Below are positions 3,600 through 15,986 of a stretch of 27,959 nt of DNA, one piece after another. Positions within the stretch are counted from its first letter, which is position 1; every line of letters begins with the position of its first letter. The translations under genes were made by a program, and so were the position numbers. The notes under the pieces are model-generated. The model made no database searches. It was not told where the DNA came from and saw nothing but the letters and a program-made list of their open reading frames with translations. This DNA comes from a virus (lineage: Duplodnaviria > Caudoviricetes): positions 1-27,959 of the IMG/VR virus record IMGVR_UViG_3300047387_000055. One strand, given 5' to 3'.

Positions 3600-5161
3600 C
3601 AGCAGAGTTTTTAAGACATGAGCCATGCGAAGTGTGTGGCTCTTCTGATGCGAAAGCTATATACAGCGACGGAAATACATTTTGTTTTAGTTGCCAAAAC
3701 TTAACAAAAGCAGACGACGATAATCACACACATCACATGCCTACAAATGTCACATTCAAAGGATCAGCCCAAAGGCTGCATAAACGAAAAATCAGCGAAG
3801 CAACCTGCCAACACTACAGAATATACAGAGACGGAGAACTTCTCCGCTTCCCTTATTTCAGCAGCGATAAGACACTTCGAGGATTCAAAACCAAAAGCAA
3901 GTTAAAAGAGTTTAAGTATGAAGGAACTACTACTGACACTTTATTTGGTCAGTCTCTTATTCCTTCTACTGGCAAACTTATCATTGTCTATGAAGGCGAA
4001 CTCGATGCTGCATCGGGGTGGGAGGCGTACCCGAACTGGGCGCATGTTTCCCTACCGCATGGTGCGGCGTCAGCCAAAAAAGACATACAGAAACAACTTC
4101 AGTTATTCCAAGGTTATAAAGAGATTATTCTCTTCTTTGACAAGGATGAAGCAGGGAAGAATGCTACGGAACAAGTGGCTGCTCTCCTACCAAGTGGGAA
4201 AGTCAAGATTGCTCACCTTCCGGATCCGTACAAGGATGCTTCTGACGCTCTCATGGCTGGAGACGGAGAGGCGATTCGCAAAGCTATCTGGAACGCGTCG
4301 CCATATCAACCGGATGGTATCGTCGATGGTAAATCGCTTCTGGAATTAGTCACTAACCCTAGTCCTCCATGTGACTTTGAGTATCCATTTGCAGGACTGC
4401 AAAGACTTACTCATGGTTGTAGATACGGAGAGCTAACGGTAATAAGTGCAGGAACAGGTCAAGGTAAATCAACCCTGACAAGACAGTTAGCGACTCACTT
4501 TTTAGATAAGGACGAGCGTGTCGGGTATATCGCACTAGAAGAATCAAATAGAAGAACAGCTTTAGGCTTGATGTCTGTAGCTACTGGTAAAGCATTACAT
4601 CTTGGAGAACATACCAAGGAAACATTACAAGAAGCATATGACTACACGCTCAAAAACTGGAATCTCTTCCTTTATGACCACTTCGGGAGTGCTGATCCTG
4701 ATACTATCTACAGTCGCATTGAATATATGGCACTCGCGCTCGAAACAAAGACCATATTTTTGGACCATCTAAGCATATTAATTTCTGGATTAGATGGAGA
4801 TGAGCGTAAGATGATCGACACCACCATGACTAAGCTGAGAAGTTTAGTTGAAAAAACAGGAATAAAACTATTCTTGGTATCACATTTACGTAGAACACAA
4901 ACAGATAAGAACCATGAAGAAGGTGCACGCGTAACTCTTGGACAACTAAGAGGTAGTGCAGCAATTAGTCAACTAGCAGATGAAGTTTGGGGGTTAGAAA
5001 GAAACCAACAAACAGAAGCTGTAGACCAGACAATCCTACGTGTTCTAAAAAACCGATACTCAGGTGAAGTAGGTGTCGCATGTCAATTGAAATACAACAA
5101 AGAAACATGTAAATACGATGAAACTACAGAGCCAATTTTCAATCCCAGCACAGACTTCTGA
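3596..5161 (+). CDS. Primase/helicase (T7 gp4-like)
   Basis: Zn finger CEVC...CFSC; TOPRIM EGELDA and FDKDEAG; Walker A GTGQGKST; IFLDHL; LRGSAAISQLAD. ATG3596 overlaps the gp3 stop (ATGA). Confidence 0.97.
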   Translation: MTAEFLRHEPCEVCGSSDAKAIYSDGNTFCFSCQNLTKADDDNHTHHMPTNVTFKGSAQRLHKRKISEATCQHYRIYRDGELLRFPYFSSDKTLRGFKTKSKLKEFKYEGTTTDTLFGQSLIPSTGKLIIVYEGELDAASGWEAYPNWAHVSLPHGAASAKKDIQKQLQLFQGYKEIILFFDKDEAGKNATEQVAALLPSGKVKIAHLPDPYKDASDALMAGDGEAIRKAIWNASPYQPDGIVDGKSLLELVTNPSPPCDFEYPFAGLQRLTHGCRYGELTVISAGTGQGKSTLTRQLATHFLDKDERVGYIALEESNRRTALGLMSVATGKALHLGEHTKETLQEAYDYTLKNWNLFLYDHFGSADPDTIYSRIEYMALALETKTIFLDHLSILISGLDGDERKMIDTTMTKLRSLVEKTGIKLFLVSHLRRTQTDKNHEEGARVTLGQLRGSAAISQLADEVWGLERNQQTEAVDQTILRVLKNRYSGEVGVACQLKYNKETCKYDETTEPIFNPSTDF

Positions 5162-5243
5162 GCTGGTGAAACCAAACCCACCCACAAAACAAGCAAAGAA
5201 AAAAGCAAAGTTTAGGGATAAAACATATACCGCTAAAAAATAA
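5118..5243 (+). CDS. Small basic hypothetical protein (41 aa), not in ORF track
   Basis: MKLQSQFSIPAQTSELVKPNPPTKQAKKKAKFRDKTYTAKK*. It fills the primase-polymerase gap and its TAA overlaps the polymerase ATG (TAATG). Confidence 0.6.
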   Translation: MKLQSQFSIPAQTSELVKPNPPTKQAKKKAKFRDKTYTAKK

Positions 5244-5761
5244 TGCTGGTATTCGATATAGAAACAAACGGATTATTATATGACGTTTCTAAAATACATT
5301 GCATTTCCATCTTTTGTACCAAAGAGGAAAAGAGCTACGTATATAACGATCAAGATGACGAGACGCCCAGTATCAGGGATGGTATCAATCAACTTATGGA
5401 AGCTGATACTCTTGCTGGGCACAATATTATTGGGTATGACCTTCCTGTTTTACGGAAGCTTAGCAGTGAGTTTTCTACTACTGCTGAATGCGTTGATACT
5501 CTTGTCCTTTCTCGCTTATTTCATCCAAATCTAATGGAGATAGATAAGAGAAGGCAATGGCGACATATGCCACTACAACTATATGGAAGACATTCACTCG
5601 AAGCATACGGTTACAGATTGGGCGAATACAAAGGAGACTTTGGTAAGACCAGTGACTGGCAAGAGTGGAGTCAAGATATGCAGGACTACATGGTCCAAGA
5701 CGTAAAAGTAACTACAAAATTATGCGAGCACTTCCGCCCTTATCTGACGCGTGTAGATTAG
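5243..5761 (+). CDS. DNA polymerase family A, N-terminal 3'-5' exonuclease part
   Basis: ExoI FDIETNG, ExoII GHNIIGYD, HSLEAYGYRLG and ExoIII YMVQDVKVT, all as in the T7 gp5 N-terminus. Ends in TAG before the polymerase domain. Confidence 0.93.
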   Translation: MLVFDIETNGLLYDVSKIHCISIFCTKEEKSYVYNDQDDETPSIRDGINQLMEADTLAGHNIIGYDLPVLRKLSSEFSTTAECVDTLVLSRLFHPNLMEIDKRRQWRHMPLQLYGRHSLEAYGYRLGEYKGDFGKTSDWQEWSQDMQDYMVQDVKVTTKLCEHFRPYLTRVD

Positions 5762-6987
5762 AGCATCGCGTCGCAGAAATATTGACTGAACAAGAAATTC
5801 ATGGATGGACATTTAATGAATCAAAAGCTCAGCAACTTGAGTCACATCTCAGAAGAGAGATGGAAGAAACTATTGACATACTTCGAAAACAATTCCCTTA
5901 CGTTGCAGGATCGTTGTTCACTCCTAAACGAGATAACGCAACACAAGGGTACAGAGCAGGATGTGAAATACAACGAATAAAGGAGTTTAACCCAACCTCA
6001 CGAGACCATATTGCATGGATTCTGACGACACATTTGAATGTCAAATTGAGCAAGACCACTACGACTGGGAAACCAATTATCGACGAGATTACATTGACGG
6101 AGATAAATATTCCCTTCTCGCTAGCATGTGCGAAATGTTTGACGATAAAGAAGAAGCTTGGAATGATATCCGAAGGCGTGAACGCATGGAACAAGCTTGT
6201 TACGACTGAAGGCAGGATACACCACAATTGCTCGGTTAGTACGAACACATTTAGATGTGCTCATCGTAAACCGAATTTGGCACAAGTGCCTGCTGATAAA
6301 GAATTTAGAGAGTTATTTACTGCCAGTCTAAGACACACCATGGTAGGTGCAGATTTAAGTGGTATTGAACTACGAATGCTTGCACATTATCTTGGCAGAT
6401 ACGACAACGGTAGGTATGCAGATATTCTTCTCAACGATGATATACATCAAGTAAATGCCGACAAGATCGGTATCACAAGACGTCAAGTTAAGACTGTCAC
6501 ATATGCCTTCCTTTACGGAGCAGGCAACGAAAAAATTGGAACCTCTTATGATAACACCCTCAAACCCAATGAAGCTAAAAAGAAAGGCAAGGAAATTAGA
6601 GAAGCGTTTGTTTCTGCAATCGAAGGTCTCGCTGACTTATTGGGAGCGGTTTCAGCTAAGTCTACTAATGGGTGGCTTTTAGCTATTGACGGTAGGAGAG
6701 TTCTAGTTGATAGTCCACACAAAGCTCTGAACTATTTACTTCAGTGTTCGGCTGGAGTTATAGCGAAGCGTTGGATGGTTATAGCGAATGATCGACTACA
6801 ACCTTTTCACACACATCAACTAGCATTCGTTCACGATGAATTGCAGTATGAATGCCGACCATATCATGCAGTTGGTGTGAAACGCGAACTAGAAACTTCA
6901 GCAATATTAGCTGGAGAGTATTACCAATTACGCTGTCCTATAGCTGCCGAAGCAAAAGAAGGTTTGACATGGGCAGACGTACATTAG
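5722..6987 (+). CDS. DNA polymerase family A, polymerase part (-1 frame relative to the exonuclease ORF)
   Basis: LEHRVAEIL...HGWTF; FNPTSRDHIA; PNLAQVP; motif A DLSGIELR; motif B KTVTYAFLYGAG; motif C FVHDE. In-frame ATG at 5722, or entry by frameshift; the true start is uncertain. Confidence 0.93.
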   Translation: MRALPPLSDACRLEHRVAEILTEQEIHGWTFNESKAQQLESHLRREMEETIDILRKQFPYVAGSLFTPKRDNATQGYRAGCEIQRIKEFNPTSRDHIAWILTTHLNVKLSKTTTTGKPIIDEITLTEINIPFSLACAKCLTIKKKLGMISEGVNAWNKLVTTEGRIHHNCSVSTNTFRCAHRKPNLAQVPADKEFRELFTASLRHTMVGADLSGIELRMLAHYLGRYDNGRYADILLNDDIHQVNADKIGITRRQVKTVTYAFLYGAGNEKIGTSYDNTLKPNEAKKKGKEIREAFVSAIEGLADLLGAVSAKSTNGWLLAIDGRRVLVDSPHKALNYLLQCSAGVIAKRWMVIANDRLQPFHTHQLAFVHDELQYECRPYHAVGVKRELETSAILAGEYYQLRCPIAAEAKEGLTWADVH

Positions 6988-13260: not shown

Positions 13261-14340
13261 ATGGCAGCAATCTCAGTAACAAGAGAAAGCACAAGTAATT
13301 GGCAAAAGTTTTGCGAGTGGGTTACAAGCACTAACAACCGTCTCTATGTGGGATGGTTCGGTGTGCTTATGATTCCTTGCTTACTAGCAGCCGCAACATG
13401 TTTTATTCTCGCCTTCATAGCAGCACCACCTGTTGATATAGATGGCATACGTGAACCAGTTTCCGGTTCTTTAATCTATGGAAACAATATTATATCTGGA
13501 GCAGTAGTTCCAAGCTCCAACGCAATAGGACTGCACTTTTACCCGATTTGGGAAGCTGCCACTTTGGACGAGTGGTTATACAATGGCGGACCATATCAAC
13601 TCATTGTCTTTCACTTCTTAATAGGAGTAGCAGCATACGCTGGTAGACAGTGGGAACTATCTTACAGACTAGGAATGAGACCATGGATATTTGTAGCATA
13701 CACAGCACCACTATCCGCAGCTCTCGCAGTGTTCTTGGTTTATCCTTTCGGACAAGGGAGTTTTAGTGATGGTATGCCTCTTGGTATTTCTGGTACTTTT
13801 AACTTTATGTTCGTATTCCAAGCAGAACATAATATACTCATGCACCCATTCCATATGGCTGGTGTTGCTGGGGTATTCGGTGGATCTCTTTTCTCTGCTA
13901 TGCACGGAAGTCTTGTTACTTCCTCACTTATTGCCGAAACGACAGAGGAAGTCTCGCAGAACTATGGTTATAAGTTTGGGCAAGATGAAGAGACATATAA
14001 TATTGTCGCTGCACACGGGTACTTTGGGAGACTAATTTTTCAGTATGCGAGTTTTAATAATTCTCGTTCTCTACATTTCTTTCTTGCTGCTTTCCCGGTT
14101 ATTTGCATATGGCTAACAGCTATGGGAGTTTGCACAATGGCATTCAACCTTAATGGTTTTAACTTTAACCAATCAGTAGTTGATGTTAATGGGAAGATTA
14201 TCCCAACATGGGCTGATGTATTAAACAGAGCTAATCTTGGCTTTGAAGTAATGCACGAGCGTAACGCTCACAACTTCCCACTTGACTTGGCTTCTGCTGA
14301 GTCAACACAAGTTGCACTAACAGCACCATCTATAGGATGA
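13261..14340 (+). CDS. psbA: Photosystem II reaction centre protein D1
   Basis: [50 protein letters not shown] and [15 protein letters not shown]; no intron. Confidence 0.99.
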
Positions 14341-14450
14341 GCCATCAATCAAATGTTATGAGAGCAAGCATCACTTACTATGCACCTCAAAAGGAAGAAG
14401 AGAAAGAAACTGATAAAGAACTTTCTGACGACGATAACTCTGATAACTAA
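14337..14450 (+). CDS. Small acidic hypothetical protein (37 aa)
   Basis: [37 protein letters not shown]; ATGA overlap with the psbA stop. Confidence 0.55.
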
Positions 14451-14526
14451 TATCTTTATCATCTCTGGTGTAACCAGACATTGGCAACCACGTCCGTTCA
14501 TCCCTTCGGGGACGCATGAGAACTAA
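14380..14526 (+). CDS. Small putative membrane peptide (48 aa)
   Basis: [48 protein letters not shown]: basic N-terminus plus one hydrophobic segment. LITNxFIIxGVxRHW recalls small cyanophage hypotheticals (from memory, unverified). Confidence 0.45.
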   Translation: MHLKRKKRKKLIKNFLTTITLITNIFIISGVTRHWQPRPFIPSGTHEN

Positions 14527-14545
14527 GCATGGAACGGGGCTTAGT
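14493..14545 (+). ncRNA. Glutamine-II riboswitch (Downstream-peptide RNA motif)
   Basis: P1 CCGTTC (14494-99) / GAACGG (14532-37); P2 TCCC-TTCG-GGGA (14501-12); pseudoknot ACTAAGC (14522-28) / GCTTAGT (14539-45). Shows the CGTTCA...GACG...GGAACGG consensus and is followed by GGAG and a YRG peptide. Confidence 0.85.
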
Positions 14546-14559
14546 ATATGGAGATAACC

Positions 14560-14613
14560 ATGAAAGTTACTTTCGTATATCGTGGCGTTGCTTACACAAG
14601 AGTAGTCAAGTAG
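14560..14613 (+). CDS. DUF4278-like YRGVxY micro-peptide (17 aa)
   Basis: MKVTFVYRGVAYTRVVK*; Shine-Dalgarno GGAG at 14550-14553; directly 3' of the riboswitch. Confidence 0.82.
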   Translation: MKVTFVYRGVAYTRVVK

Positions 14614-14649
14614 ACCTTTGGGGAGGTGCGAATCCTCCCTACTCAATTT

Positions 14650-14760
14650 GGCTAAAGCCCTCTGAGGAGGATACCTTTAAGCCGTCGACGGTGGGAAAAG
14701 ACCACAAAGCGTGCCAGTCTCACGCTAGACCAATTAAGACTGCAACAATTCTAACGTTAG
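14650..14760 (+). promoter_or_regulatory. Structured RNA leader of the major capsid gene
   Basis: Stems GGCTAAAG/CTTTAAGCC capped by CCTC-TGAG-GAGG; GTGG-GAAAAGA-CCAC; AGCGTG/CACGCT whose loop CAGTCT pairs with AGACTG (14737-42). Confidence 0.6.
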
Positions 14761-14795
14761 GAACGACAATATATACCCTTACTTTTTAAGCAAAA

Positions 14796-15941
14796 ATGGC
14801 ACAACAGTCATCAGCTAACCCTACCTCACTTACACGTCAGGGTCAGCTTAATTCAGCAGGTGACGCTAGAGCCCTTTACTTAAAATTGTTCAGTGGAGAA
14901 ATGTTCAAAGGCTTCCAACACGAGTCAATAGCTCGCGATTTGGTTATGAAGAGAACATTGAAAAACGGAAAGAGTCTTCAGTTCATCTACACAGGTAGAA
15001 CAACTGCTGAGTTCCATACTCCCGGAAATTCAATTTTAGGTAACAGCGACGGCGCACCTCCAGTTGCAGAAAAAACAATAACTTGCGACGACCTATTAAT
15101 CAGTTCAGCCTTCGTGTATGAGCTAGATGAAACACTCGCACACTATGAATTGAGAGGCGAGATATCCAAGAAGATTGGATACGCATTAGCAGAGAAGTAT
15201 GACAGACTCATCTTCAGAGCTATTGCAAAAGGTGCAAGACAAGCTTCTCCAGTAGCTAAGACTAACTTCAAGGAGCCCGGTGGAACACAGATCAGAGTTG
15301 GTTCAACAACTAATGATTCTGATGCTTACAACGCAGGCAACTTAGTTAATGCTTTCTACGATGCAGCAGCAGCACTAGACGAGAAAGGTGTATCTTCAGC
15401 AGGAAGATGTGCAGTACTTAACCCTCGTCAGTACTACGCTTTGATCCAAGACATTGGTTCAAACGGACTTATCAATAGAGACGTTCAAGGTACAGCATTA
15501 CAAGGCGGAAACGGAATCATTGAAATTGCAGGTATTCATATCTACAAGTCAATGAACATCCCATTCTTAGCTAAGCATGGTGTAGCTTATGGCGGAACTA
15601 CAGGTGAGACATCTCCTTCAAACTTAGGAGACCACGTGGGTACAGCTCTAGCTGACGCACGTAAGTCTGTAACAGGACTAAACAACAACTACGGTAACAG
15701 CACAGACTTTGCTAAGTCATGTGGTTTGATCTTCCAAAAAGAGGCAGCCGGAGTTGTAGAGGCTATTGGACCACAGGTACAGGTTACATCTGGCGACGTA
15801 TCAGTCGTATATCAGGGTGACGTAATCCTTGGAAGACTAGCTATGGGAGCAGATTTCCTTAACCCAGCAGCAGCCGTTGAACTATATGTAGGTGCTACAG
15901 CACCAACAGCGTTCGGTACAACATACCCAGAGAACGGTTAA
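14796..15941 (+). CDS. Major capsid protein (T7 gp10-like)
   Basis: ALYLKLFSGEMF, RTLKNGKSLQF, EKTITCDDLLISS and VLNPRQYY motifs; 381 aa; followed by a strong terminator. Confidence 0.97.
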   Translation: MAQQSSANPTSLTRQGQLNSAGDARALYLKLFSGEMFKGFQHESIARDLVMKRTLKNGKSLQFIYTGRTTAEFHTPGNSILGNSDGAPPVAEKTITCDDLLISSAFVYELDETLAHYELRGEISKKIGYALAEKYDRLIFRAIAKGARQASPVAKTNFKEPGGTQIRVGSTTNDSDAYNAGNLVNAFYDAAAALDEKGVSSAGRCAVLNPRQYYALIQDIGSNGLINRDVQGTALQGGNGIIEIAGIHIYKSMNIPFLAKHGVAYGGTTGETSPSNLGDHVGTALADARKSVTGLNNNYGNSTDFAKSCGLIFQKEAAGVVEAIGPQVQVTSGDVSVVYQGDVILGRLAMGADFLNPAAAVELYVGATAPTAFGTTYPENG

Positions 15942-15957
15942 TTTATTCTTTTTATAC

Positions 15958-15982
15958 GGGAGCTTCGGCTCCCTTTTTTTTT
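15958..15982 (+). terminator. Intrinsic terminator after the capsid gene (T-phi equivalent)
   Basis: GGGAGC-TTCG-GCTCCC followed by nine T. Confidence 0.95.
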
Positions 15983-15986
15983 ATTT

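Follow-up and report, generated by a model that had tools for sequence, protein, structure and literature searches.

The psbA-capsid interval

The stretch of DNA analysed here, which we will call the window, is a virus record of 27,959 nt that is about 62% complete. Its gene order, as read from the list of ORFs, is T7-like (RNA polymerase, replication genes, portal, scaffold, hli, psbA, capsid, tail), and the virus is a marine cyanobacterial virus of the T7-like cyanopodovirus type. The interval between psbA and the capsid gene shows 84% identity to that of P-GSP1, and the features that we have found in and around it are collected in Table 1. Elsewhere in the window, the DNA polymerase region (5243-6987) is split into two overlapping ORFs (5243-5761 and 5665-6987), an arrangement that has been described for clade B T7-like cyanophages (PMC12695635).

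Table 1. Features of the psbA-capsid interval and its flanks, in window coordinates.
Feature	Position	Strand	Basis
psbA (photosystem II D1), upstream context	13261..14340	+	ORF list; placed like the annotated psbA of P-GSP1, P-SSP7 and S-TIP37
37-aa ORF, overlaps the psbA stop, acidic tail	14337..14450	+	phrog_23119 (E 6.5e-9); 18 distinct variants in relatives
48-aa ORF, basic start and hydrophobic segment	14380..14526	+	phrog_28543 (E 1.2e-7), phrog_1679 (E 3.8e-5)
Glutamine-II (Downstream-peptide) riboswitch aptamer	14492..14545	+	Rfam RF01704
Shine-Dalgarno-like GGAG	14550..14553	+	4 nt 3' of the aptamer, 6 nt 5' of the start codon
17-aa single-repeat YRG peptide gene	14560..14613	+	YRG ORF in all pattern-matched cassettes; synonymous-biased change in this frame only
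tRNA-like element (tRNA-half mimic)	14600..14645	+	Covariation, fold, spacing constant with real tRNAs
Capsid leader core	14650..14705	+	Conserved at capsid loci; covariation; no Rfam match
Second perfect palindrome, about 40 nt 5' of the capsid start	14751..14760	+	Self-complementarity kept
T7-like major capsid protein gene	14796..15941	+	75-83% identity to capsids of the top cultured cyanopodovirus matches
Intrinsic terminator-like hairpin and U-run, 3' of the capsid gene	15958..15983	+	

A previous sequence-only reading of this DNA had placed a riboswitch between psbA and the capsid gene. The placement holds, but two small ORFs of 37 and 48 aa between psbA and the switch had been missed. 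The first of them is found in relatives either 5' or 3' of the riboswitch cassette. The final codons of the second cross the aptamer, with the stop located within the 5' strand of its 7-bp helix, and translation of this ORF would compete with or disturb the folding of the aptamer. Such reading through the aptamer is seen in the window phage and in P-GSP1, while the 38 distinct variants detected in relatives have other end points in many cases, often away from any aptamer. One relative has a capsid gene that is seemingly broken after its first codons by non-coding sequence (near 3800-3930 of that locus), possibly an intron.

A glutamine-II riboswitch and its single-repeat peptide

The aptamer matched the Rfam Downstream-peptide model over its full length (model positions 1-60 of 60, E 5.9e-10) with 51.6 bits against a gathering threshold of 33. 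This was the only gathering-level Rfam match in the window, and none of 14 control genomes had a match to the Glutamine-II model. The P1, the UUCG-capped P2, the 7-bp pseudoknot, the GGAG and the 17-aa ORF of the earlier reading are all present in the sequence where they had been located: positions 14495-14499 pair with 14532-14536, a 4-bp hairpin is capped by UUCG (14501-14512), and a perfect 7-bp helix (14522-14528/14539-14545) is followed, after 4 nt, by the GGAG. The names given to these stems appear to follow an older drawing, since in the crystal paper the UUCG hairpin is P1, the 7-bp helix is P2 and the pairing of the 5' end with GGAACG is the pseudoknot (PMC6698751). With C1 of the crystal numbering set at 14495, the ligand-pocket bases C1, G2, G18, C19, C39, G40 and G41 and the A33:G42 pair, mapped by hand from the published structure onto 14495-14538, are all kept. 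Judged from its sequence, that is, from the RF01704 match and the intact ligand contacts, this element is a glutamine-II riboswitch, as had been proposed.

The 3' helix is maintained at 6-9 bp in 101 of 103 distinct phage copies though its sequence varies, and the spacer between aptamer and ORF is similarly purine-rich in most relatives. The minimum-energy fold of the aptamer region alone, obtained with a program that cannot model pseudoknots, was no better than that of shuffled sequences (z -0.3 to -0.5). Covariation of a putative anti-Shine-Dalgarno pairing was weak and not significant (the value was reached in 293 of 5000 permutations). For host copies, binding of L-glutamine and ON regulation have been published, and the copy of strain MED4 is described as an ON switch in a GFP fusion, probably acting on translation (PMC6212724; PMC6698751).

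The presence of this switch in phages is not new, because the P-SSP7 copy (NC_006882.1/19588-19642) has been a row of the Downstream-peptide alignment since 2010 (PMC2864571, supplement); the novelty implied by the sequence-only reading was therefore overrated. The main text of the same paper gives downstream ORFs of 17-100 aa, and its passages on this motif do not discuss phage. Glutamine riboswitches have also been reported in the methylophage Melnitz (PMC9004378) and in T4-like cyanophages (PMC9602691; PMC9964418). The class had been taken as known but lacking an established function in infection, and no such function for the switch or for the peptide was found in the literature searched, which was thin on subscription papers, e.g., the P-SSP7 transcriptome.

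Among the 80 closest of 597 capsid matches in IMG/VR, 57 held the whole psbA-capsid interval and 56 of these carried the switch (54 by a strict pattern and two by a looser one), a proportion that describes one clade because the relatives were these closest matches. A second set found through the capsid leader motif (see below), which partly overlaps the first, had the switch in 47 of 52 loci. Ten of 14 named isolates carried it (seven detected by Rfam, two by pattern, and S-SBP1 with an ORF in the hairpin loop), and Syn5, P60, S-CBP2 and S-B28 had no switch in the capsid region examined. The loose aptamer pattern was found at 121 loci in the one of 64 parts scanned, and a pattern scan of genome contigs gave 44 matches that are mostly due to chance. 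Upstream of the phage copies a strict NtcA box was not enriched (2 of 101, shuffle mean 2.3), and a relaxed NtcA pattern was found in 19 of 101 against 7 in shuffles. At five loci, S-SBP1 among them, the first hairpin loop of the aptamer in the psbA-capsid interval contains a complete ORF of 54-61 codons that starts in or near the 5' strand of the aptamer and stops just past the conserved CGCA; the S-SBP1 copy was missed by Rfam.

The switch lies within 40 nt of the end of psbA in 22 of the 56 loci, and it is a mobile module of the scaffold-capsid interval that is strictly tied to neither neighbor. The cassette could be a neutral passenger, acquired from the host together with psbA and with no role in infection. 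In the sampled host genus every genome (41 of 41) has 2-9 switches, many unrelated small ORFs have entered the psbA-capsid interval, and some phages are without the cassette, all of which would fit such an origin. However, its conservation in all but one of the close relatives among the best 80 of 597 capsid matches, its presence in S-TIP28 and SS120-1, which have no psbA in the region examined, and the phage-specific forms of the peptide, which also show coding selection, make a passenger very improbable.

A YRG ORF was located directly 3' of the aptamer in all 107 distinct pattern-matched cassettes. It has 17 aa in 49 of them, and all but two are 13-38 aa long, the remaining two having 51 and about 80 aa. 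In the window, translation from a further in-frame ATG (14548) would yield 21 aa; as this ATG overlaps the Shine-Dalgarno sequence, 14560 is the likelier start. Among 62 distinct cores, the in-frame single-base codon differences were 5536 synonymous and 1890 non-synonymous, and the ratio is reversed in the two remaining frames (1204:5461 and 597:7453). These counts are pairwise and, like the covariation counts given below, not independent of phylogeny. The other two frames have stops in 35 and 27 of the 62 cores. The second Tyr is invariant in 62 of 62, and it was not a selection criterion as the YRG was. These patterns indicate that the 17-codon ORF is under coding selection, and the peptide gene recognized earlier can be taken as real, selected and related to the host Downstream-peptide ORFs, with which it has the YRGxxY repeat in common. 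The host ORFs (38 distinct, one of them on a phage-type contig) have 33 aa and two repeats, 46-58 aa and up to three repeats, or 100-104 aa without the motif. At the sequence level, the window peptide is a single copy of the repeat, which occurs two or three times in host peptides. One class of the host glutamine-II switches, seen at four loci, is located 5' of an ORF of 100-104 aa with a hydrophobic N-terminus and no YRG.

A Pfam search gave no match for the window peptide (21-aa form) at E 10. Of 12 proteins searched, six, which are longer phage forms, matched DUF4278 (PF14105) with E 0.0016-0.11 and 13-19 bits, below the cut-off of 25.3 bits. The nearest Atlas clusters of a host 33-mer were DUF4278 at 0.87, which is a lead only, and its predicted structure, of low confidence (pLDDT 64), shows the second repeat as a beta-hairpin with RG at the turn.

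The peptide had been proposed to modulate nitrogen assimilation. The route through glutamine synthetase is weakened, because DUF4278 corresponds to the N-terminus of IF17, which inhibition does not require and which mainly affects stability (PMC6316151), and the 17-mer is one repeat. A direct glutamine synthetase inactivating factor of the kind suggested for the IF17-like proteins of hosts, which would damp ATP-costly ammonium assimilation in nitrogen-replete infected cells, would be in line with the same riboswitch logic that controls gifB, DUF4278 ORFs having been held to be IF17-like by Klähn et al. (PMC6212724), with the basic character of the window peptide, and with the N-terminal region of IF17, which seems to improve inactivation (PMC6316151). 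However, the Prochlorococcus proteins are described as missing C-terminal residues on which contact with the enzyme critically depends (PMC6212724). The phage peptide is even shorter: its 17 residues are all repeat and the enzyme-contacting C-terminal region of IF7/IF17 is absent, as judged from the published requirement (PMC6212724; PMC6316151). A complex prediction with two copies of a Prochlorococcus glutamine synthetase and the 33-aa two-repeat YRG peptide of the same genome (score 0.00, mark 0.32) counts neither way; the window 17-mer is below the size of the tool. We regard direct inactivation as possible, if doubtful. Given the single repeat and the missing inhibitory part of IF17, the peptide is read here as a putative minimal mimic of the host repeat.

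The capsid leader and the slot before it

Coupling of the capsid gene to glutamine had also been suggested, and in its simple form it is not supported. The published reporter data fit a translational ON switch of the adjacent ORF. The capsid start is 182 nt from the peptide stop, and a search for terminator-like sites between 13470 and 14920 found none, which speaks against a transcription-attenuating riboswitch that controls the capsid gene by a terminator or antiterminator. The switch was within 360 nt of the capsid start in 38 of 56 capsid-anchored relatives and farther in 18 (maximum 1129 nt), most of these having other ORFs in between, and some relatives without the switch keep the capsid leader. 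Direct control is unlikely, because the cassette can be up to 1.1 kb away or missing while the capsid keeps a leader of its own. There is room for an indirect control, since the last codons of the peptide gene form half of a tRNA-like element. In P-SSP7, psbA is reportedly co-transcribed with the capsid genes.

The interval 14600-14795 is filled by a separate conserved structured RNA that had been missed by the sequence-only reading. The leader core is made of a C/AUAC internal-loop stem with a tetraloop hairpin (14650-14683), a perfect palindrome (14682-14691) and a 3' hairpin (14691-14705). It was found 5' of the capsid gene in 68 of the 70 loci whose flank was long enough, both where the switch is present and where it is absent, and as a single copy in the window. 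In the outer stem, 48 distinct strand pairs gave 5.71 pairs against 4.76 ± 0.10, a value reached in 0 of 5000 permutations. In an alignment of 30 rows, 88.8% of the cells pair and the covariation score was 0.161 versus 0.043, although the structure slid by one column scores nearly as high (0.143). The C/AYAM internal loop is conserved and common to distant phages (9 of 14 isolates with a strict descriptor). Both zero-loop palindromes (that of the core and the second one closer to the capsid) vary in their central four bases among relatives and are still self-complementary; 139 of 155 leaders have the second one at a length of 8 nt or more, compared with 29 on average after shuffling. Palindromes of this kind could allow the formation of RNA dimers.

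Searched against Rfam, the leader had no match with the E limit at 10 (the window), 3 (17 loci) or 1 (nine isolates). The leader and hairpin patterns were found in one of 61 host-family genomes. The contig concerned, from a Prochlorococcus single-cell genome, carries the phage-type cassette along with the hairpin and the capsid leader (within positions 35500-38600) and is probably an infecting or integrated T7-like phage. The literature search, thin on subscription papers, found no report of this leader. A leader of this kind, the front slot of which can take a tRNA, a mimic or a hairpin, is missing from Rfam 15 and is apparently new to the catalogues.

The front slot is occupied in the window by the tRNA-half mimic. 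A 5-bp acceptor-like stem (14600-14604/14640-14644) is stacked on a T-arm of 6 bp with a 7-nt T-loop (14621-14639), and a small hairpin that holds the peptide stop stands in the place of the D and anticodon arms. The element, which overlaps the last codons of the peptide gene, has no cloverleaf, and as a tRNA gene it was recognized neither by ARAGORN (0 genes) nor by Rfam (no tRNA match at E 10). The slot 5' of 159 distinct leaders contained the mimic in 82, a hairpin with a conserved loop in 71, a full tRNA in five (anticodon TCC by eye, two of the five confirmed by Rfam) and a hairpin variant in one. Between the T-loop closing base and the start of the leader there are 14-15 nt in 77 of 77 mimics, and likewise in four of four tRNAs with enough flank. 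The stack of acceptor and T-arm, capped by a consensus T-loop, measures 11-12 bp in 74 of 77 mimics, taking the best-pairing position. The acceptor-like stem is perfect in 53 of 74 sequences, and nine of its 16 distinct 3' strands pair perfectly, while 5000 permutations gave 1.6 on average and never more than 7, the pairs having been counted by script as the stem was not aligned by MAFFT.

Of 121 matches to the hairpin form, 105 were within 260 nt of a capsid gene and two were elsewhere, the other 14 being on sequences too short for a decision. All 14 named cyanopodovirus isolates, including the four without a riboswitch in the capsid region, have the slot 139-188 nt 5' of the capsid, with the T-arm in eight and the hairpin in six, and no second copy was found in 67 kb of flank. 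We discarded the possibility that the mimic is part of the host cassette, as it was 3' of none of the 38 host-locus ORFs and of none of the 31 capsid-distant phage cassettes. At one locus (3' of its position 1501) near-identical short elements come after both a conserved-loop hairpin and, at some distance, a tRNA-like gene, as though hairpin and gene were equivalent front ends.

RNase P and RNase Z measure the ~12-bp acceptor/T stack from the T-loop. The spacing of 14-15 nt that is common to mimic and tRNA suggests a candidate cut site for tRNA nucleases. A real tRNA in the slot, once matured, would leave the transcript cut at the 5' edge of the leader, and we infer the same for the mimic. By this analogy the mimic is likely a processing site for a host tRNA-maturation nuclease and would act as a cutting signal for the capsid message. 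Among contigs assembled from RNA runs, two oligo-dT libraries from one study span 14257-15004 and 14256-15194 without differences and may be DNA. In three metatranscriptomes no contig covered 14612-14659, although contigs cannot show RNA ends, strand or level. Contigs start at 14666-14679 in three runs and one contig covers 14574-14663, positions that in assembled contigs do not show ends.

Leader and slot might instead be a protein-binding or RNA-dimerising element, with a role in assembly or in the autoregulation of the capsid, or else they might act at the DNA level, e.g., as a late promoter. In T7, gene 10 has a promoter to itself, and the internal loop common to distant phages together with the two palindromes that change in sequence while staying self-complementary would also be expected under such roles. 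On the other hand, a real tRNA at the same slot spacing would need excision there, compensatory changes favor RNA structure over a promoter read as sequence, and the leader occurs only once in the window (about 62% complete as a record). We consider these roles unlikely as the explanation of the element, although they are not exclusive and would be compatible with processing.

A different possibility is that the glutamine signal reaches the capsid through the mimic. Glutamine would promote translation of the peptide, and ribosomes ending at 14611-14613 would unfold the mimic, changing the cutting of the capsid mRNA and the amount of capsid; a terminating ribosome would have this effect because the 5' strand of the mimic starts in the ORF or its stop. 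This is the case in 67 of 70 peptide-adjacent mimics, at several offsets (-15 to -2), and 62 of the 82 mimics have switch and peptide directly upstream, most of the others having a YRG ORF or a remnant of it. The 38 of 56 loci with the switch close to the capsid point in the same direction. However, the mimic is kept at five loci without cassette where psbA abuts it, as well as in Syn5, P60 and S-CBP2, which have no switch in the capsid region examined; 15 leaders join an adjacent cassette to the hairpin form, which starts after the stop in the examples inspected; and the overlap may reflect genome compaction or shared ancestry. We find this coupling rather unlikely. If true, host glutamine would set the release of capsid mRNA, a metabolite sensor being wired to virion production by way of RNA processing.

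Proposed mechanism and relation to known systems

We consider it probable that a host-type glutamine-II riboswitch turns on the YRG peptide and adjoins a separate capsid leader with a predicted tRNA-like processing site. This proposal is built on the identity of the aptamer and its intact ligand pocket, the coding selection on the peptide, and the covarying tRNA-like element and leader. The cassette would be read inside the psbA-capsid polycistron, without a promoter of its own. Without glutamine, the 5' end of the aptamer may pair weakly with the Shine-Dalgarno sequence, which would be freed by ligand binding, and by analogy with the published host copies high host glutamine would turn on translation of the 17 residues. 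The peptide would fold as one beta-hairpin, replace the host riboswitch-controlled YRG peptides and dock on the same partner in nitrogen regulation, without being a full inhibitor of the IF17 type. RNase Z or RNase P would cut the tRNA-like element, giving a capsid mRNA that starts with the structured leader, and would do so both with and without a riboswitch in the neighborhood. The frequent overlap of mimic and ORF fits a coupling of the two parts, which is here treated as secondary.

The picocyanobacteria that T7-like cyanophages infect dominate the oceans where nitrogen is scarce. A sensor of nitrogen status with an unannotated 17-codon gene, nearly fixed in a clade, represents an auxiliary function that can be tested in P-SSP7, S-TIP37 or S-SBP1. 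With its one repeat, the peptide is the smallest form in which the DUF4278 repeat occurs naturally, and it could be a simple probe for the partner of this repeat. The leader front slot is kept in every named cyanopodovirus examined, and the exchange of tRNA, mimic and hairpin predicts an exact cut site that, if true, would help to explain how a transcript that also carries photosynthesis genes yields abundant capsid mRNA.

Switch and peptide are of a known kind in a known host range. Like the members of the Glutamine-II/Downstream-peptide class (RF01704; PMC2864571; PMC6212724; PMC6698751), the window copy has a full-length match, the ligand-contact bases and a short ORF downstream. However, it is located inside a phage psbA-capsid interval instead of a stand-alone 5' UTR, and its ORF is followed by a tRNA-like element, whereas many host ORFs are followed by a hairpin and a U-run. 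The peptide has the hydrophobic-x-YRGxxY repeat under a glutamine riboswitch that is found in the DUF4278/IF17-like peptides of picocyanobacteria (the 33-codon ORF of Yfr6 type) and in the N-terminus of Synechocystis IF17, but with one repeat instead of two or three, no Pfam-level match and no inhibitory C-terminal region.

Processing signals are known in the C4 RNA of phages P1 and P4, in the mascRNA of MALAT1 (tRNA-like, cut by RNase P or RNase Z) and in the RNase III sites of T7. The mimic resembles the tRNA-like ones in its stack of acceptor and T-arm of 11-12 bp capped by a T-loop and in its location between cistrons. It differs in having no D or anticodon arm, in that its 5' half is coding sequence and its cleavage is a prediction, and in being interchangeable with a real tRNA and with an unrelated hairpin at one slot. 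As to the leader, Fremin 2023 describes predicted structures before the major capsid gene of aquatic tailed phages, among them five candidate viral RNAs at no more than 25 nt from PHA00201 capsid genes (DNAVirus_231, 3706, 3823, 3864 and 5397; PMC10690425). The 3' part of the leader may already have been predicted among these five; in contrast to candidates so close to the gene, the leader core has its 3' end some 90 nt short of the start codon.
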